Source: Candidatus Poribacteria bacterium (GTDB taxonomy: Bacteria; Poribacteria; WGA-4E; WGA-3G). From it: a stretch of DNA of 64,000 nt. Position 1 is the first letter of the stretch. Each line of letters opens with the position of its first letter. A program made the translations under genes and the position numbers. The stretch lies in the NCBI GenBank assembly GCA_964291315.2, contig OZ219753.1, positions 1,984,001 to 2,048,000 of the forward strand. Direction: 5' to 3'. The notes under the pieces are model-generated. The model ran no database searches, had not been told where the DNA came from, and saw nothing but the letters and a program-made list of their open reading frames with translations. This document shows positions 4,853 through 62,251 of this stretch, piece after piece.

Positions 4853-5725
4853 CTAACGTAGTCTTCGATCCGCTAATTTGATAATCTCGCCATTTTCCTG
4901 TGCAATATACATATACCCCAAACCATCTAACACAACGCCCTCTTGCTCATCGCCCGGTAGGAGGTATTGCGCTAAAATCGTGCCATCCCGTTTAAGTTCA
5001 ACTAGCAAATTGCTCGTATCACTGACTAACACGAGACAGTCGCCCTGCGCATCATAAGCCAACCCTGAAATATCAATGAAGTTCATTCGATAGACGTTGA
5101 TAATCATGCCTTCTGCCTCGCGCGACTTTCCAGAACGGAGCGGAACCACCACCTCACATACAACTGAAGGTTCATCCTCTGGTTTGAGACTAAAAGATTG
5201 GTTACCAACCCAAAAAGTCCCACCTTCAGGATGCAAAGTATCACGCACAAAGGCGATCGCTTCGATACCCATACCACCTTTTTTTAAGATATGTTCGCCC
5301 TCAAAAGTCCTGTTAATTTTGAACTCTCTCTGAATCGTTAATGTTCCTACATCTAGCTCTAAGATTATCTCGTCGCCTTCCACCGCGGCATAAAGCATAC
5401 CCGTATCCGGATCCACAGTAATCCCTTCAATGTCGCGCTCGCTCAGCTCTTTTGATTGAACAAGCATACCATCTAACCCAACTTCATGAACACTCCCTGA
5501 GTCATCAGCGATAAATAGAGTCCGGCGCGCCGAGTGATAGGTAATACCAGAGGGTTCAGCAATTTGCGACCTTGTAATATTACCTACCCAACTATACGGA
5601 AGCGCAACCGGACGCGAAACCGCTACACCTTTCGTTACGGAGTCCTCCATTTGGATAAGAAAATAAACGAGACCGACCCCGATACCAATAATAAAAATGA
5701 TTAAGAGCACACGTTTATAGGACAT
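4853..5725 (-). CDS. SdiA-regulated/YjiK-like beta-propeller with N-terminal membrane anchor
   Basis: EPSGITY, DIEGIT, GIEAIAF, DISGLAYD, QEGVVLD repeats; start moved to MSYKR (5725), followed by a TM helix. Confidence 0.8.
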   Translation of the reverse strand: MSYKRVLLIIFIIGIGVGLVYFLIQMEDSVTKGVAVSRPVALPYSWVGNITRSQIAEPSGITYHSARRTLFIADDSGSVHEVGLDGMLVQSKELSERDIEGITVDPDTGMLYAAVEGDEIILELDVGTLTIQREFKINRTFEGEHILKKGGMGIEAIAFVRDTLHPEGGTFWVGNQSFSLKPEDEPSVVCEVVVPLRSGKSREAEGMIINVYRMNFIDISGLAYDAQGDCLVLVSDTSNLLVELKRDGTILAQYLLPGDEQEGVVLDGLGYMYIAQENGEIIKLADRRLR

Positions 5726-6166
5726 TCGCCAATCCCGTTTCTCCGTTGTAAGACTTCTAACCTCGGTTAAATGCATCAAGGCACTCTCTGCAAAATTATG
5801 CTTGTAATATATCATGTTCCGCACCATTAAGCAACAAAAACGGGACAATTGCAGCACCATTGATTTTCTTTAACAGGACTTCCGGTTATGAAGATCTCTT
5901 TTCTGGATGGCCGAATTGGAAAACTAGATAACCTTATGATACGCAAGAGGCATAGGTTTCCAAAAACTATTTTCCCTTGACAAACTGCCTGTGATAATTG
6001 TATTTTAATTTAACTCACAATTTGATCGGCCAGCAATACAATAATGTTTTGCTGGCAAATCAACGTTTTCACACCTAGGAGAGGTCAGTGCTTTCTGATA
6101 GCACGCCTGAAACCGAAAACCGTATGTCCGAACTCGTATAGGGGATACGATAAGCAAGGATCGGTT

Positions 6167-7582
6167 ATGACTAACATGCCGAGGCTCGTCGTTGAAGTCT
6201 TTGAACATGTGAATTTTCAAGGACGCAAAGTAACGCTCATTAAATCGGTGCCAAATACTGGAGAGATTGGTGCACAAGACATTATCTCCTCAGTTAAGAT
6301 TTATAAAGGCCCTGGATTTAACGCGTCTCCGAACTATAAAGCGATCTTTCACGAGCATGAAGACTATAGAGGCCGCAGACTTGTACTCCCCCCAGGGTTC
6401 TATCCGAATATTCATGATATCCCTTACAATTTTGGAGACGCTATTACGTCTATCAGCTTTAGTCCATCCGCACATCCAACCCCGCCAGAGTACGGGGCTG
6501 TGCCGGTTATTATCGAAGTGTTTCGTGATGTCGACTATAGTGGGCAACGCAGCGTTATCATGCGCGACGTCAGTTCGATGTTTGACATCGGTATGAACGA
6601 TACGGTTTCGTCCATCCGTATCCAGCGGGGACCCAGTTTCCCCTTCAGCGGATGTCATGTTATCTTTTATGAACACGTCAATTTTGAAGGGCGACGCCTG
6701 AACCTAAATTTAAGCTCGCGGGAATTCCAATTAGCACTTCCCAAGCTTAGAGATCTCCCGCATCAGCAATCATTTTCGGATATCATTTCGTCTATAAAAA
6801 TTGTTCCGTTAGGAGTATTCCGAGTCCTAGTTGTCGTTGGGGATAAACGGACAGGAGAGCCCGCCGTATTAGAATCGCTTACCACAATTGAAGGACTAGA
6901 ATTCCAATTCACGACCGTTCATGTCAACGACAACCCCGACAATTATGGCGACCCTAACAATGCTATCAAACTTTCAAGCATCACGCTTTCAGATTATGAT
7001 ATTCTCTGGTTTACTTGGAACGCACCAGGACATGACGGGGCATATTTCATCGAAGACGCGGATCAGGCAATCCGTGACTTTGTACGTAAAGGCGGAATCG
7101 TCTGGGCCTCAGCAATGGATAACAATATCATACCACCCGATGGCGTCCATACTACCGAACCCCAATGGCGCGGGGACTGGCTGCCAGTCAACCGGCACCC
7201 GTTGCGTGTTGTTAACTCCAACGATAGCAACGTTCAAGTTACCGGGGATGGGCAAAAAACCGGACTGTTTACCTGGCCCCATAAAGTTAATGTAGATACA
7301 CTTGTAACCGACGATCATTGGATAACAGAAGACAAAAGCTATCGAAAATTAGCAGTCAGAGAAGATAACGGCGATGCAGCAAGCCTCCAATTACAATGGG
7401 GCGAAGGCCATTATGTCACTTTTGCTGTAGATACTCGCGACGCCTATCGCACAACGATAGCCAAACCACTCATTGAGAATGCGCTGTGTTATTTAGCGAA
7501 CCTCGCATGGCAGACTTCTCCTCGTCAACCGCTCAAGGGGCGATACCGGACGCACCTCAGCAGCGATACAATCTTCCGGTGA
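6167..7582 (+). CDS. beta/gamma-crystallin domain protein (4 Greek-key motifs) with C-terminal GATase/ThuA-like alpha/beta domain
   Basis: four F/Y-E-H-x-N/D-F/Y-x-G ... D-x-x-S/T-S motifs; C-terminal YDILWF...AIRDFVRKGG; RBS AAGGA before ATG 6167. Confidence 0.8.
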   Translation: MTNMPRLVVEVFEHVNFQGRKVTLIKSVPNTGEIGAQDIISSVKIYKGPGFNASPNYKAIFHEHEDYRGRRLVLPPGFYPNIHDIPYNFGDAITSISFSPSAHPTPPEYGAVPVIIEVFRDVDYSGQRSVIMRDVSSMFDIGMNDTVSSIRIQRGPSFPFSGCHVIFYEHVNFEGRRLNLNLSSREFQLALPKLRDLPHQQSFSDIISSIKIVPLGVFRVLVVVGDKRTGEPAVLESLTTIEGLEFQFTTVHVNDNPDNYGDPNNAIKLSSITLSDYDILWFTWNAPGHDGAYFIEDADQAIRDFVRKGGIVWASAMDNNIIPPDGVHTTEPQWRGDWLPVNRHPLRVVNSNDSNVQVTGDGQKTGLFTWPHKVNVDTLVTDDHWITEDKSYRKLAVREDNGDAASLQLQWGEGHYVTFAVDTRDAYRTTIAKPLIENALCYLANLAWQTSPRQPLKGRYRTHLSSDTIFR

Positions 7583-30884: not shown

Positions 30885-32516
30885 TTATCTGTTTTCACTG
30901 GACAAAGGAGTCAAACTATTCTCACGCGGGACATAAAGGAATGCGTTTCTACCAACAAAATATTGGGCGTAGACCTTTTCCCAATCGCTGTTTGTCAGCT
31001 TCCAGCCTGGCGCAGGGCCGAGTTTGAAATAGACAATATCTGCTTCCTCAAGACTCTGAAATGGATAGTCTCCAATTGGAGCACCGCGATGCTGAGATAT
31101 AAAAATCACGGCATTGTGAATATCGCGAGCTTCCACCATAGGCGGTAACCTTTGGTAAACAGGGCTCCAATTCTGGTATACCTTCCCGATACGGATGTAA
31201 CTCCATACAAGGTTAACACTGAGTAACAAAAAGCAGATTCCAACACCAGTTGCAAGCCCCGGCCCGTCATGTAATTTGAACCGCTCATAGAGGATAAACA
31301 TGCCGCGTGCTACCAACGGGATGAAGGCAAGGAATATCGATTCAGTATAGTAACGAGCGTTTACAGGTGTAAATCCCCAGGTTGAACCTTCAAAATAAAA
31401 GAAAGCATAGAGCAGCAGATTCCCGAGAATCAAAGCAAAGCATACTACATCGTACCTGTTACGCGAACGGTGGAAGAGGGGGATCAACATGAGGCACCAA
31501 GGCAAAACCAACGGTACGAAAGCAACTAACCATGTTACTGACAATTCAATATCTTTAAACAGATCATGGTGATAGATTCCCCAACCGAGAGCGTTGAAAC
31601 TAATACACGGGAGAATGTGTCTCCACGTTCTCTCGATTGCCCATGCAGGTGTAAAAATGAACGCCTGTTCGATATCAGGTTCATAGCCCTCCATCCGAGC
31701 ACCGAATCCGATTTTGTCGTAGGGCTGCGCAACCGTGTGTGTGAAAGTGAACGGGTCTCCTGTGAAATGTCCGTTCCATGCCATACACATCCCCAGCATT
31801 ATGAAAAACGGGATGAAAAAGAAGCCTGAACGTTTCACTGTGGCGAAAAACGCTCGTCGATCCTGCCATTGAGTAAAAAGATGATAGATCGTTAATCCGC
31901 CTCCGACAACCCCAAAGACAACCGCAGAAAGCGGACGCGTATTAAACACATACCCCAACGCAAATCCTGAGAGCAGTGGATAGCTTATCCGAACCAGGCG
32001 GGAAGCATTACTGCTGCAATTCAACGCCTTAAGAAGCGCGAATAGGTAAACGGAAAGATAGAAACGACTCACGGGCTCACTGAACCACGTTGAGCCCATA
32101 CCAAGTGTTGCAGGTGAAATCAGCGCGAGCCCCGCTGTTACGAGTGCAAGTCCGCTATGAGTATTGCCATATATCTCTTTTACAAACAGATAGAGGAACA
32201 GCAGCGCACCGCCTGTCGCAAGCGCGGGAATCAGCCACGGCGCGCCGATAAACACCCCAAACATCAGCATCAAGGCATTTCCGAACGGATATTTTGAATA
32301 CCATTTGTCGTTTAAAACATTAATATGCGGTGAAGAAGAAAAACCGTGTTCTAACGGCGCGGAAAATGAGAGCTTGCCTTCCGCAAACAACTTCGCTTGA
32401 AATAGATATGAGACAGTATCTGGTTCAAAGTAGGAGAACTGAAAGTAGATACCACACAGAATCACTGAGAATAGTATACCGAGTATAGAAATGATGAAAA
32501 TCGGTTTAACCTTCAT
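30885..32516 (-). CDS. GT-C type (ArnT/PMT-like) integral membrane glycosyltransferase
   Basis: PD..SY.FQAKLFA.G, WYSKYPFG, multiple TM helices, TRP, ARYY. Confidence 0.75.
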   Translation of the reverse strand: MKVKPIFIISILGILFSVILCGIYFQFSYFEPDTVSYLFQAKLFAEGKLSFSAPLEHGFSSSPHINVLNDKWYSKYPFGNALMLMFGVFIGAPWLIPALATGGALLFLYLFVKEIYGNTHSGLALVTAGLALISPATLGMGSTWFSEPVSRFYLSVYLFALLKALNCSSNASRLVRISYPLLSGFALGYVFNTRPLSAVVFGVVGGGLTIYHLFTQWQDRRAFFATVKRSGFFFIPFFIMLGMCMAWNGHFTGDPFTFTHTVAQPYDKIGFGARMEGYEPDIEQAFIFTPAWAIERTWRHILPCISFNALGWGIYHHDLFKDIELSVTWLVAFVPLVLPWCLMLIPLFHRSRNRYDVVCFALILGNLLLYAFFYFEGSTWGFTPVNARYYTESIFLAFIPLVARGMFILYERFKLHDGPGLATGVGICFLLLSVNLVWSYIRIGKVYQNWSPVYQRLPPMVEARDIHNAVIFISQHRGAPIGDYPFQSLEEADIVYFKLGPAPGWKLTNSDWEKVYAQYFVGRNAFLYVPRENSLTPLSSENR

Positions 32517-32542
32517 TCAGTCTCCGAAAATCAGTGAAAAAT

Positions 32543-32571
32543 TTGACATTCGCCTATCAATTGAGTATAAT
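32543..32571 (+). promoter_or_regulatory. sigma70 consensus promoter of the his leader/operon
   Basis: TTGACA-N17-TATAAT perfect match. Confidence 0.85.
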
Positions 32572-32641
32572 ACCATCAAAGTAAATTAAAATCATTAAGA
32601 CTTTTTAACAGCAAGTTTCAACTTGCAAGTGAAAATCAAAA

Positions 32642-32692
32642 ATGTTAGACATTAATACTTTTAATAGGCATCGCCACCATTCGCATTTCTGA
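32642..32692 (+). CDS. hisL: His-rich leader peptide MLDINTFNRHRHHSHF
   Basis: ATG...CAT CGC CAC CAT TCG CAT TTC TGA: 4 His in the last 7 codons, upstream of hisZ-hisG-hisS; functional analogue rather than proven homologue of enteric hisL. Confidence 0.8.
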   Translation: MLDINTFNRHRHHSHF

Positions 32693-32835
32693 GTAGAGCG
32701 GATGAGGGAACATGCTATACATTATTGATACAAAGCAAGTTCAACTTGTTAGTCTCCAGTAAGCGATCCGCTCTTCTCAGTGCTGCACTACTAGTGCGCG
32801 CTAAATATAGGGCATTCGGTTTACTGTTTTTTTTT
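32689..32835 (+). promoter_or_regulatory. transcription attenuator (antiterminator 32689-32703/32766-32780; terminator 32757-32826 plus U-tract)
   Basis: CTGAGTAGAGCGGAT pairs with ATCCGCTCTTCTCAG (14/15); alternative long hairpin CAGTAAGCGA...TCGGTTTACTG followed by T9. Confidence 0.78.
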
Positions 32836-32969
32836 AATTTTTTCGTCCGTAAAGTTTCCCGTTTTTGCCACCGTCAAAAACGGAGAGAAACCTTCACCTT
32901 AGAAATCAAAACTGGAGTTTTTTGCGAACAACACCTGGAGTATGTACCGCTTAGATACATGAACAAAAA

Positions 32970-34406
32970 ATGGAAAAATTTAACAAACCTGATGGAACGA
33001 GCGATTTTTTGCCTGAACAGATGAACCAGCGGAATTTCGTCGAAAAGATCGTTCGTGAAACCTTTGAAAATTACGGATACGCACAAGTTCAGACACCGAT
33101 CTTTGAGTCCTTCGCGCTTTTATCTGCGCAATCCGGTGAAGAAATTCGGCACAAGATGTTCACCTTCGTCGGTTCAGATCGTGTAGATTACGCTTTAAGA
33201 CCAGAAATGACCGCACCCGTCTGTCGACTCATCGCTAACCAGAAACTTGGACACCTTCCTTTCCCTTACAAACTCTACTACATCGGTCAATGTGTCCGAC
33301 AAGAACCAACTGCAGACGGCGCTGAAGTAAAGAGAGAATTTCGACAGGCCGGTATCGAGCTCATTGGACCGGCTTCTGCACCTGCCGATGCAGAGATCAT
33401 AGCGATCCCCATCCGTATCCTTGAAAAACTCAATATTCCACACACAAAGTTAAAAATAGGCAATACTAGAATCTTTCGAGAAATTTTCAAACAAGGCAAG
33501 ATTGATACCAAGGATCACGGCGAAATTATATGGGACATCGACTATCTTGCGCGTCTCCGGGCCGAAGCACAGCTGTGGAATCTGGAAACACTCCGCGACG
33601 CGCTTAATATGTTGAGACGATCACAGGGAACTAACTACAAAGGGAAATACAAGATAGAAGCCGCCGCAGTTCAGGAATTAACGGAAGGTAGCGCTCCCTC
33701 GCTCGCTGCAAAATTGCCTCTGATCGCAGAAGAAACCTATAAAGCACGGTGGTGTCGTTATTTCAATATCTCTGAAGCAGCTGCCACAGCCTGTATAAAT
33801 GTCTCGAAAATCTCGGGAGACAAAGACACGGTTATGGCGGCGTGGAAAGCATCTTTCAGTGAAACACTGCAGTCCGCCCACCAAGAACTCGTCGCACTTT
33901 GCGATTCCCTAGAAAACTACGATATTACAGATTTTGAAATCAACTTAGGTATTACGCGCGGGTTTGATTTTTATACCGGGATGGTATTTCAGATTGAATT
34001 ACCCGGAAAACATCGCCCCCTCTGTGGTGGTGGACGGTACGATGGTCTTGTTGAATCCTTCGGGGGACCATCGACACCCGGGGCAGGATTCGCATTCCAA
34101 TTCGATGCACTTGTAGACGCATTTGCTGACATAGGGAAAATAACCCTTAACAAAGGAAAAGACTATTTCATCGCAGCAGAAACATCAGAACGTGTTGCTG
34201 AGGCACAGCGACTTGCAGAAATGCTACGGAGAAAGGGCAAGAACGTGGAAGTGGATCTGATGGGGCGCGACCTTCAAGCACAAGAAAACTACGCGAATCA
34301 AGCAAGCTACGATTACCTCATTCGTCTAGACTCTGATAATTCGATCCGCCGAATTCAAATCAAAACAGGCAAGACACAAGTAGTCACTGTTCCTGAGCTT
34401 CTATAA
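32970..34406 (+). CDS. hisZ: ATP phosphoribosyltransferase regulatory subunit (HisRS paralogue)
   Basis: LRPEMTAP, REFRQAGIELIG, FYTG, GGGRYDGL; motif 3 lacks the catalytic Arg (FQFDAL); precedes a short hisG. Confidence 0.8.
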   Translation: MEKFNKPDGTSDFLPEQMNQRNFVEKIVRETFENYGYAQVQTPIFESFALLSAQSGEEIRHKMFTFVGSDRVDYALRPEMTAPVCRLIANQKLGHLPFPYKLYYIGQCVRQEPTADGAEVKREFRQAGIELIGPASAPADAEIIAIPIRILEKLNIPHTKLKIGNTRIFREIFKQGKIDTKDHGEIIWDIDYLARLRAEAQLWNLETLRDALNMLRRSQGTNYKGKYKIEAAAVQELTEGSAPSLAAKLPLIAEETYKARWCRYFNISEAAATACINVSKISGDKDTVMAAWKASFSETLQSAHQELVALCDSLENYDITDFEINLGITRGFDFYTGMVFQIELPGKHRPLCGGGRYDGLVESFGGPSTPGAGFAFQFDALVDAFADIGKITLNKGKDYFIAAETSERVAEAQRLAEMLRRKGKNVEVDLMGRDLQAQENYANQASYDYLIRLDSDNSIRRIQIKTGKTQVVTVPELL

Positions 34407-36581: not shown

Positions 36582-37775
36582 ATGAAAATGAGACAGTTGT
36601 ATCAACATTCCAATTTCATTCGCTATCTCTTTTTGATCCTTTGCATTGTTCAAGCAGTGCAATTGACAAGCGCGGGGTGTAGTCACACCCAACCTTACTA
36701 CCACACCGATGTGCCTGAAATAGAGAGACGTGATAGCAAAGCAAACGGAGTACTTCATTATCGTCTTTTACTACTCGGTGATGGTGGTAAACCAACACCG
36801 GATGAACCTGTTCTGAAAACGCTCCGCAAATGGGCAGAAAAAGATGCTACGAAAACAACCATCGTCTTTTTAGGAGATAACATGTATCCCGAGGGTATGA
36901 CAGAACGCAAGAAACATCAAGCAACAGAGCGACTCATGCCACAACTCACCGTTGTCAAAACCGCCGGGGCCCACGGGCTCTTTATTCCCGGAAACCACGA
37001 TTGGTCAAACGGAAAAGCGAAAGGATATAGTGCCCTTCTTGCACAAGAAAAGTTTATCAACGATGCGCTAACCCAGAAACCAACGTTTCTTCCCCCCGGC
37101 GGTTTGCCTGGGCCAGCCGTGCTTGAACTGCCAAAGGTCAACCCTGCAGTCCGACTTATCGTTTTGGACACACATTGGTGGCTCCATCTGCATGAAAAAC
37201 CTCAGAAATCACCAGAATCGGTTATCAAAGAACTTAGCGCCCTATTGGACACAGCATTGCCGGTGGTTGTTGTAGGGCATCATCCGTTGGAAACTTACGG
37301 ACCACATGGAGGCTTCTTTGATTGGAAGTCCCATCTTTTCCCCGCTAGAGAGATAAACAAGTGGCTCTGGATTCCCATGCCTATACTCGGATCCGCATAC
37401 CCTTATTGGCGGAAACACTTGTACAAATCCGATCAGGATATGAGCGGCACACATAACAAGTATATGGTGACACAGCTGAATAGCGCATTTGCCATTCGAA
37501 ACGCGACTCATCCAAACCCACCCCTTTTAATTTATGCCTCCGGACACGATCATTCGCTACAAGTCCTAAAAAATAAACACGTGGACTATCTGCTTATTAG
37601 TGGAGCTGCTTCAAGTCAAAAAGTGACGGAAGTGACATCTGGAGAAAATACTATGTTCGCGCATGAACACACAGGTTTCATGGCAGTGGATTTTTTCACC
37701 AATGGACAAGTCTTGCTACGCGTAGTTGAACCTGAAGGTAAAGGGGTATTATTTCACCGATGGCTGACCTTTTAA
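36582..37775 (+). CDS. exported calcineurin-like metallophosphoesterase
   Basis: GDGG, FLGDN.YP.G, PGNHDW, GHHP, SGHDH; signal or lipobox AG/C. Confidence 0.88.
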   Translation: MKMRQLYQHSNFIRYLFLILCIVQAVQLTSAGCSHTQPYYHTDVPEIERRDSKANGVLHYRLLLLGDGGKPTPDEPVLKTLRKWAEKDATKTTIVFLGDNMYPEGMTERKKHQATERLMPQLTVVKTAGAHGLFIPGNHDWSNGKAKGYSALLAQEKFINDALTQKPTFLPPGGLPGPAVLELPKVNPAVRLIVLDTHWWLHLHEKPQKSPESVIKELSALLDTALPVVVVGHHPLETYGPHGGFFDWKSHLFPAREINKWLWIPMPILGSAYPYWRKHLYKSDQDMSGTHNKYMVTQLNSAFAIRNATHPNPPLLIYASGHDHSLQVLKNKHVDYLLISGAASSQKVTEVTSGENTMFAHEHTGFMAVDFFTNGQVLLRVVEPEGKGVLFHRWLTF

Positions 37776-56019: not shown

Positions 56020-56201
56020 TTTGCCTATGTCGTTAGACGGGCTTGCGGTGTAACCTAATCAACCGCTACCTCTCTGCCAATATAGCGGTTTTTCTTAGCA
56101 CCATCATAAGTAGCATCATCCTTATATAAGGCTCCCATGTAGGATTCGAGTGAAATGCTCTAAACACCGTTCTTCGTAAGGACCTGTTTTCAACAGGCAA
56201 A
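56020..56201. ncRNA. candidate ~180-nt end-paired structured element (ncRNA or MITE-like)
   Basis: ends TTTGCCT/AGGCAAA, AGACGGG/CCTGTTT and CGGTGT/ACACCG pair; internal AACCGCTA/TAGCGGTT hairpin; promoter adjacent. Confidence 0.4.
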
Positions 56202-61495: not shown

Positions 61496-62134
61496 CTACT
61501 TCATTATCAACATTTTACGGGTTGCGTTGAAAGAACCTGCTTCAAGTGTATAGAAATAGACACCGCTCGCAACAGATTCACCCGTATCGTTACGCCCATC
61601 CCAATACACCGCACGAGACTTGCTGCGGTAGGCACCGGGTGCCTGATGCCCTAAGGAGAGCGTCCGCACTAAGCTGCCATCAGCCGCGTAAATGGACACT
61701 TTGACTTCAGCGGCATCTGCAAGGTCGTATGGGATCCAAGTCTCTGGGTTGAACGGGTTCGGATAGTTTGTGAGCAGTGCAGACTGCTTTGGGATTGCCT
61801 GCTGCTTCTCGGATAGCAAGAGCAGGCGATCTGCGAGCTCTTGCTGTCTTGCATGCACGAGAGCGGGTTCCAGTTCACCGGATTCTGTGGGTTTCGCCTC
61901 GGGCTCTGTGATAAAGTGTAAGCCCACTGTCCCGTGAGGTTTCGCCAATCTACCCGGCTCCGTGGGTTTCGCCTCGGGCTCTGTGATAAATTGCCGGTCT
62001 GTTTCTACTTGCAGCGTAGCCGAGGGGCTCTCAAGACTCGTTTTTGCATTACTTGTCGTATAGAAAACGAAGCATAAGGCGATTGCAGCACTCGATGCTC
62101 CGACGACTTTGAGAAAAGGCATCCAATATTTCAT
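61496..62134 (-). CDS. small secreted protein, essentially a T9SS/FlgD-like C-terminal domain
   Basis: signal peptide; LLTNYPNPFNPETWIPY..WDGRND.GE.VASGVYFY..RKMLIMK. Confidence 0.85.
   Translation of the reverse strand: MKYWMPFLKVVGASSAAIALCFVFYTTSNAKTSLESPSATLQVETDRQFITEPEAKPTEPGRLAKPHGTVGLHFITEPEAKPTESGELEPALVHARQQELADRLLLLSEKQQAIPKQSALLTNYPNPFNPETWIPYDLADAAEVKVSIYAADGSLVRTLSLGHQAPGAYRSKSRAVYWDGRNDTGESVASGVYFYTLEAGSFNATRKMLIMK
61887..61990 (-). repeat. 29-bp exact direct repeat (period 75 bp) encoding FITEPEAKPT
   Basis: GTGGGTTTCGCCTCGGGCTCTGTGATAAA at 61887-61915 and 61962-61990. Confidence 0.9.
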
Positions 62135-62222: not shown

Positions 62223-62251
62223 ATTATACCCTAATTTTAATTCTGTGTCAA
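62223..62251 (-). promoter_or_regulatory. sigma70 consensus promoter for the CTD/FGE genes
   Basis: TTGACA-N17-TATAAT on the minus strand. Confidence 0.75.

Follow-up and report, generated by a model that had tools for sequence, protein, structure and literature searches.

Attenuation through a translated leader peptide is the classical mode of his-operon control in gamma-proteobacteria. The E. coli his leader contains seven His codons, and in the E. coli pheST leader (pheM) an aminoacyl-tRNA synthetase is placed under an attenuator rich in codons for its own amino acid. In bacilli, passages of one published account predict such His leaders ahead of both hisZ and a hisS paralogue (PMC2965389). 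Those of another predict further His attenuators in Eubacteriales, Erysipelotrichales and the B. cereus group, in which the Rfam model of the enterobacterial leader, RF00514, likewise finds no match (PMC9413887). Here, an element of this kind is described in 64,000 nucleotides (nt) of a Candidatus Poribacteria bacterium (contig OZ219753.1, positions 1,984,001 to 2,048,000; hereafter the window, to which the coordinates refer). The region ahead of its hisZ-hisG-hisS genes very probably acts as a ribosome-mediated leader-peptide attenuator that senses charged tRNA-His and controls all three, a reading that draws on sequence features, conservation and predicted folds. By sequence comparison, it appears to be a genuine His leader attenuator, conserved across related Poribacteria loci. 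It is a known type of amino-acid sensor, in a phylum for which the literature searched holds no earlier report: searches combining Poribacteria with attenuator returned none, and those combining Poribacteria with leader peptide returned, by title, only natural-product papers.

The leader reading frame and its conservation

Relatives were collected with the HisZ-like protein as query, and the conservation counts are limited to the 44 loci returned. HisZ identity is 58-81% in 42 of these (41 titled Poribacteria and one 'uncultured bacterium') and ~40% in the remaining two, which belong to a Thermodesulfobacteriota metagenome-assembled genome (MAG; L043) and a Deltaproteobacteria MAG (L044). Searched with a profile of the leader (nhmmer), the window and 41 of the 42 close loci each yield a single copy. 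It invariably precedes hisZ and shares its strand, and neither the window nor the flanks contain another. The sole close locus without a copy (L002) lies near a contig end that leaves 276 nt upstream. Another (L012) is truncated within the leader by a contig cut, so the assessable set comprises 41 sequences, the window and 40 loci. Clade A consists of the window, L001, L003-L011 and L013-L030 (29 sequences), and clade B of L031-L042 (12 sequences). The alignment of the promoter and upstream region holds 39 sequences (the window and 38 loci), L009 and L026 having too little upstream DNA.

The original prediction, made from the letters of the window alone, had placed a His-codon open reading frame (ORF) of 16 amino acids (aa), MLDINTFNRHRHHSHF, in front of hisZ. 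It is present, and its four His codons start where they had been located, at 32669, 32675, 32678 and 32684. All 41 assessable sequences have an ATG-started ORF of 14-18 codons that contains four or five His codons and ends at a common position; loss of the upstream ORF (uORF) or of its His codons in relatives, which would have spoken against the proposal, was looked for, and both are conserved in all 41. The C-terminal pattern of the family peptide is HHH(H)-S-V-H-x-stop. The 28 clade-A relatives read ...HHHHS(V)[HD]x-stop, the clade-B sequences read ...HHH[SF]xH[ST]-stop, and the window copy reads HRHHSHF-stop. Three to four consecutive His codons and one more occur in 40 of the 41 sequences, the window having only two consecutive. 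The N-terminal codons are unalignable between the two clades; start, frame, length and stop position are preserved. Within clade A, the insertions and deletions in the ORF are all multiples of three, save in L025, where after a 1-nt deletion the ORF ends at the next in-frame TAG. The start codon of the uORF stands in an A-rich context, as does that of hisZ itself.

Nine other runs of His codons were found in the window, of which one, at 56099, is intergenic and lies outside any His-run ORF. Ahead of the hisZ homologue of L043 (in 2835-2985) and at the corresponding place in L044 lie a short ORF whose four His codons are not consecutive (MVRLKPHVHGNVYHGHLKAGP, then stop, in L043) and a hairpin with a T-run. 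The sequence of that region is unrelated to the Poribacteria leader, and its fold is no better than those of shuffles (z = -0.85).

Terminator, alternative pairings and the predicted switch

The terminator-like hairpin and nine-T run that had been noticed downstream of the uORF are present in the window (-27.0 kcal/mol, folded as 32751-32826), and a hairpin with a U-run of at least six is found in all 41 sequences. The hairpin has three tiers, named T1 (base helix), T2 (middle) and T3 (apical), and all 41 sequences keep this architecture, with folding energies between -26.2 and -35.6 kcal/mol. T1 measures 10-11 base pairs (bp) across the set and adjoins the U-tract; the T-run of at least six follows the hairpin directly in all 42 copies. 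The gene upstream lies on the opposite strand, so the hairpin is not the terminator of that gene. The fold of the whole leader has z = -4.6, and none of 200 shuffles folds as well. T1 is paired in 98.5% of alignment cells, with one-sided changes at 7 of 10 pairs, and T3 shows two-sided changes at 5 of 6 pairs. T2 pairs in only 65% of cells, in columns of the inner terminator that MAFFT misaligned, and for this reason no claim is built on it. RNAalifold on the MAFFT alignment recovers only the terminator base helix, a small stop-codon hairpin and a further hairpin, termed H. The stem of hairpin H is nearly invariant (99% of cells paired, one-sided changes only), and its loop measures 3-22 nt in the relatives.

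Four segments of the leader would take part in mutually exclusive pairings. Segment 1, which carries the His codons, would pair with segment 2, which starts at the leader stop codon. Segment 2 would alternatively pair with segment 3, the 5' arm of the terminator, forming an antiterminator, and segment 3 would otherwise pair with segment 4, giving the 70-nt three-tier hairpin that is followed by U9. In all 41 sequences, at least 50% of the His-run nucleotides (median 75%) are paired with the 42-nt stretch that follows the stop codon, and the partner sequences of this 1:2 helix differ between clades A and B.

The complementarity between the stop-codon segment and the 5' arm of the terminator that had been singled out in the window (32689-32703 with 32766-32780) extends over 14 of 15 positions; a 15-nt inverted repeat equally good anywhere arose in 7 of 500 dinucleotide shuffles of 32450-33000. 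In every assessable sequence, the leader stop codon lies within the strand complementary to the terminator arm. In the relatives a second, short helix could form between an AGGG-type block, a few bases past the stop-codon strand, and CCCU at the outer end of T1, and their antiterminator would thus be two-part: the stop-codon strand would pair with the middle-helix strand, and the AGGG:CCCU-type helix would extend the pairing up to the base helix. Over 18 pairs and 41 sequences, 89.0% and 91.5% of cells are paired, against 30-53% in slid controls. Three pairs change on both sides (17 cells), which 0 of 500 column shuffles matched. The main double change concerns the stop codon itself: TGA stands opposite CUC in clade A, TAA opposite CUU in clade B. 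Two further blocks, UUAG adjoining segment 2 and CUAA adjoining segment 3, occur together in clade B and are both missing from clade A. Compensatory changes in both helices had been suggested as a check. They were found at these three antiterminator pairs and in T3, and 7 of 10 pairs of T1 gave one-sided changes.

When charged tRNA-His is scarce, a ribosome translating the uORF would stall on the His run and open the 1:2 helix, leaving segment 2 free. Free segment 2 would pair with segment 3 as soon as the latter is made, the terminator would be pre-empted, and hisZ, hisG and hisS would be transcribed. When charged tRNA-His is plentiful, the ribosome would reach the stop codon and cover segment 2, so that the 3:4 hairpin would form and transcription would end at the U-tract. 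Without translation, the 1:2 helix would sequester segment 2, and the terminator would be expected in most members of the family.

Folding with and without a mask over the stop-codon segment had been suggested as a check, and the window switches as proposed: in full-length folds of its RNA, the probability of the base helix, P(T1), is 0.94 when the RNA is free, 0.00 with a ribosome stalled on the His codons and 0.95 with a ribosome at the stop codon. Of the 41 family members, 39 keep P(T1) at 0.8 or above as free RNA, and 38 do so with the ribosome at the stop. Because the full-length equilibrium folds are mixed across the family, folds of the nascent RNA were added, in which the transcript ends just past segment 3 and the antiterminator is scored as formed at a core probability of at least 0.5. 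It forms in 41 of 41 nascent RNAs when the His run is covered and in 7 of 41 without a ribosome. The window copy is among these seven, its antiterminator reaching a probability of 0.98 in ribosome-free RNA. The 'minimal two-state' design that had been ascribed to the locus was not borne out. The design is the classical four-segment one: the segment past the stop codon is paired with the His codons in all 41 sequences, and free, untranslated RNA therefore avoids the antiterminator in 34 of 41; in these models the window copy is the most two-state-like of the family.

A short ORF with tandem regulatory codons and an intrinsic terminator between that ORF and the first structural gene, both expected of a leader-peptide attenuator, are found in 41 of 41 sequences, as is, by fold prediction, a leader hairpin that pairs the regulatory codons. 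A terminator-excluding antiterminator that a ribosome at the stop codon could cover is predicted, with partial overlap with the base helix. The core of the original prediction, a ribosome-sensed switch ahead of hisZ-hisG-hisS, is supported by the conserved uORF, stop position, terminator and gene order and by the mask folds.

Several observations weigh against this interpretation. At the level of the uORF, the His run of the window is degenerate (H-R-H-H-S-H), and no Shine-Dalgarno (SD) motif lies near the uORF start; by a crude count, 21 of the 43 long ORFs of the window have an SD-like motif. Most paired positions of the antiterminator are invariant, and its covariation amounts to roughly one or two evolutionary events, so that it is real but thin. 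Compared with dinucleotide shuffles of segment 3, the 2:3 duplex has a better energy than 95% of them in only 18 of the 41 sequences and than 99% in 5; the shuffles also pair well because one strand is purine-rich and the other pyrimidine-rich. The duplex is weak in clade B, where that of L040 is worse than its own shuffles. Swapping partners across clades gives duplexes no worse for clade B, and reversed segment 3 is a poor control with strands of this purine-rich and pyrimidine-rich composition. The antiterminator spans T2 and reaches T1 only at its edge, and with the paired positions of segment 3 blocked the base helix still folds in 9 of 41 sequences, the window included, in folding that is blind to pseudoknots. 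The complete lack of antiterminator at the stop-codon state of the nascent folds follows from the construction of the mask. Finally, stalling on the His codons brings P(T1) below 0.5 in only 16 of 41 full-length equilibrium folds, so that the outcome would need to be decided kinetically, as it is in known attenuators. The exact antiterminator pairing, as modelled, is only moderately supported.

The mixed equilibrium folds, in which masking the His run still leaves the terminator favoured in 25 of 41 sequences, together with a duplex not far above composition-matched shuffles, would also suit a constitutive leader structure or partial terminator, with a uORF that affects only translation or mRNA stability and senses no histidine. 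This is highly improbable, as three to four consecutive His codons ahead of histidine genes in 40 of 41 sequences are hard to explain otherwise, the stop codon sits inside the arm-complementary strand in every sequence, and the nascent-RNA folds switch cleanly. If the short ORF were incidental, the leader could be an RNA that senses uncharged tRNA-His or a small ligand directly, in the manner of a T-box or otherwise. Its length of ~250 nt and the regulated hisS and hisZ would fit this, being typical of Firmicutes T-box control in the passages concerned (PMC2965389, PMC9413887). Such a sensor is extremely improbable. The uORF stays open with its His run in 41 of 41 sequences despite the N-terminal divergence between the clades, and the lack of relevant Rfam matches speaks against a T-box or other known RNA sensor: at gathering score the whole window has no match, a search of 32400-33100 at E <= 10 gave only chance snoRNA matches, and nine related loci gave none at E <= 0.1, the T-box models and RF00514 both being unmatched.

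The constancy of parts of the leader raises another question, namely whether a protein or RNA acting in trans on hairpin H, or on the invariant purine-rich block after the stop codon, sets the switch instead of or besides the ribosome. The stem letters of hairpin H are nearly identical in 41 sequences despite its variable loop, the G[AG]GCGG and CCGCUC blocks are invariant beyond what pairing demands, and a 5' untranslated region (5'-UTR) hairpin of clade A shares the stem letters of hairpin H. The invariance of the blocks is also explicable by the two alternative pairings of each segment, however, and a trans factor would not account for the conservation of the ATG, the reading frame, the His run and the stop position. 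No conserved candidate regulator gene lies beside the operon, the upstream 543-aa ORF having no family match and being absent from the clade-B flanks, and a trans-set switch is improbable. Unlikely, too, is a composite regulator in which hairpin H is bound by a trans factor, such as the histidyl-tRNA synthetase (HisRS) or HisZ paralogue of the downstream genes, and the GGAG bridged by a hairpin ahead of hisZ (see below) acts as a second, translational checkpoint; if it were real, the histidine supply would be read at two or three levels within one 430-nt leader.

Operon, promoter and flanking features

The features are listed in Table 1.

Table 1. Coordinates in the window of the putative attenuator and of the genes it would control.
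Feature	Position	Strand	Basis
Sigma-70-type promoter	-35 TTGACA 32543-32548; 17-nt spacer; -10 TATAAT 32566-32571	+	consensus match
5'-UTR hairpin H0 (GCAAGU/ACUUGC)	32611-32626	+	fold and upstream alignment; clade A only
Leader ORF, MLDINTFNRHRHHSHF then stop, 16 codons	32642-32692 (ATG 32642; TGA 32690-32692)	+	sequence and conservation
Segment 1, His-codon strand of the predicted leader hairpin	32678-32690 (32678-32684 with 32698-32704; 32688-32690 with 32695-32697)	+	minimum free energy (MFE) fold
Segment 2, from the leader stop codon; predicted antiterminator 5' strand and 3' strand of the 1:2 hairpin	32689-32711 (32689-32703 plus 32707-32711)	+	complementarity and folds
Hairpin H (CAAGUU/AACUUG), between segments 2 and 3	32735-32749	+	alignment
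Segment 3, predicted antiterminator 3' strand overlapping the terminator 5' arm	32752-32780 (32752-32757 and 32766-32780)	+	duplex -25.3 kcal/mol
Putative terminator hairpin, three tiers	32757-32826 (base helix T1, 32757-32764 with 32819-32826; middle T2; apical T3)	+	fold
U-tract (T9)	32827-32835	+	sequence
hisZ-like gene, HisRS paralogue of HisZ type, 478 aa; probable regulatory subunit for short HisG	32970-34406	+	tRNA-synt_His match
hisG, ATP phosphoribosyltransferase, 259 aa	34434-35213	+	TIGR00070, 118.7 bits (cut-off 75.75)
hisS, histidyl-tRNA synthetase with anticodon-binding domain, 443 aa	35225-36556	+	TIGR00442, 396.1 bits (cut-off 286.75)

The assignment of the downstream genes as hisZ-hisG-hisS agrees with the domain matches, and their order is kept in the relatives: hisG follows hisZ in 42 of 42 close loci, and hisS follows hisG in 39 of 42, the contigs of L003 and L023 ending before hisS. 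In L010 (5286-7038), hisG is followed by a different ORF of 471 aa (5623-7038), and no hisS lies within the 3-kb flank. The gaps in the window are short (27 nt between hisZ and hisG, 11 nt between hisG and hisS), and no further his gene was found within the 64 kb. The first gene is probably HisZ-like, a name given by context. Its product scores just under both NCBIfam cut-offs (284.4 vs 286.75 bits for hisS, 232.2 vs 271.65 bits for hisZ) and has FQFDAL, with no Arg, opposite the motif-3-like FGIERI of the third gene, whose FGIERI/ERI is taken here to be motif 3. Its C-terminal domain is alignable to the anticodon-binding domain, and ~100 residues are inserted in it with respect to the adjacent HisS. 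A gene with a metallophosphoesterase domain (36582-37775) begins 25 nt past hisS, occupies the same position in many clade-A loci and may be part of the same transcript as hisS.

Between the U-tract and hisZ, the distance ranges from 31 to 540 nt among the relatives. This spacer (32836-32936 in the window) contains different hairpins in each genome; that of the window is formed by CCGUUUUUG...CAAAAACGG at ~32863-32887. In L006, L010, L014, L019 and L025 it contains tandem AACTGATAAC-like repeats, which suggests repeated small insertions. The hisZ-like gene of the window has no SD motif at the usual distance. A GGAG (32937-32940) lies 29 nt ahead of the hisZ ATG, the gap being filled by a hairpin (32941-32961), and the region is shared by L001-L030. 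Among 43 sequences (the window and 42 loci), 16 have a GGAG 26-30 nt upstream of hisZ with a hairpin of 6-9 bp and variable stem sequence, in 7 the GGAG lies at 20-22 nt and the hairpin is weaker, all 12 loci of clade B carry an ordinary AGGAG at 7-9 nt, and the remaining 8 lack one. The hairpin might move the remote SD up to the start codon, an arrangement with a precedent in phage T4.

Upstream of the uORF, the perfect TTGACA-N17-TATAAT promoter of the original prediction is present at 32543-32571, and transcription would begin ~7 nt past the TATAAT box. The perfect motif occurs twice in the window, against 0.03 occurrences expected from shuffles. In the upstream alignment, TATAAT is aligned in 38 of 39 sequences (L029 is not alignable) and TTGAC[AT] is found wherever the 113-nt upstream slice extends far enough, so that the conserved form is TTGAC[AT]-N17-TATAAT. 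The other perfect copy lies at 62223-62251 on the - strand, upstream of an ORF (61496-62134, -) with a FlgD Ig-like domain.

Hairpin H0 of the 5'-UTR is absent from clade B in the upstream alignment. Its loop carries a 30-nt insertion in L001, L010 and L013-L015, and its stem letters differ in L025, L027 and L030, where local pairing is still possible as judged by eye, not counted. The MFE fold of the window joins the two hairpins through a long-range GCAAG pairing. This was rejected in favour of local hairpins because in L025, L027 and L030 the upstream stem is altered and the downstream hairpin unchanged, again by eye. A divergent ORF of 543 aa (30885-32516, - strand) stands beside the leader in clade-A loci at 76-83% identity; it has no Pfam or NCBIfam match and was not found in the clade-B flanks.

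Significance and comparison with known systems

With 42 copies, the Poribacteria leaders make up a well-populated RNA family that Rfam does not contain, and they would extend leader-peptide attenuation to an uncultivated phylum of sponge symbionts. The first pathway enzyme (HisZ/HisG) and histidyl-tRNA synthetase would stand under one sensor of tRNA charging. As attenuation needs a ribosome close behind the polymerase, conservation of the element is indirect evidence for transcription-translation coupling in Poribacteria, for which cell compartmentalisation has, in passages of one source, been suggested since the first description of the phylum (PMC5087111). For annotators, the locus adds a short ORF and a putative premature terminator overlooked by gene callers, and the predicted switch is clear enough to be checked in existing sponge metatranscriptomes.

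Like the enterobacterial hisL leader (RF00514), the Poribacteria element combines a His-codon leader peptide with an alternative leader hairpin, antiterminator and terminator, a U-tract and a predicted termination of untranslated RNA, as far as the logic is set out in passages of PMC9413887. It differs from hisL in having three to four consecutive His codons plus one, a 70-nt three-tier terminator and an antiterminator that starts from the stop codon. It also heads hisZ-hisG-hisS rather than a full his operon, belongs to a different phylum and is not matched by RF00514. With the Firmicutes His leaders, as portrayed in parts of two accounts (PMC2965389, PMC9413887), it shares a His-rich leader peptide (with three to five consecutive His codons in those accounts), a terminator and antiterminator, and a position before hisZ and a gene of the HisRS family. 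Set against the published descriptions, it stands apart in that a single leader covers hisZ, hisG and a complete hisS, and it presumably arose independently of the Firmicutes leaders. The T-box(His) elements of Firmicutes have the same genes, the same choice between terminator and antiterminator and a response to tRNA-His charging, which is predicted here. However, a T-box binds the tRNA directly, without translation, whereas the Poribacteria leader has a conserved ORF that looks translated. The pheST leader offers a parallel of another kind, in that a synthetase is placed under a leader-peptide attenuator, in Poribacteria by prediction. Unlike pheST, the Poribacteria case involves another amino acid and lineage, and its synthetase would share the attenuator with biosynthetic genes.

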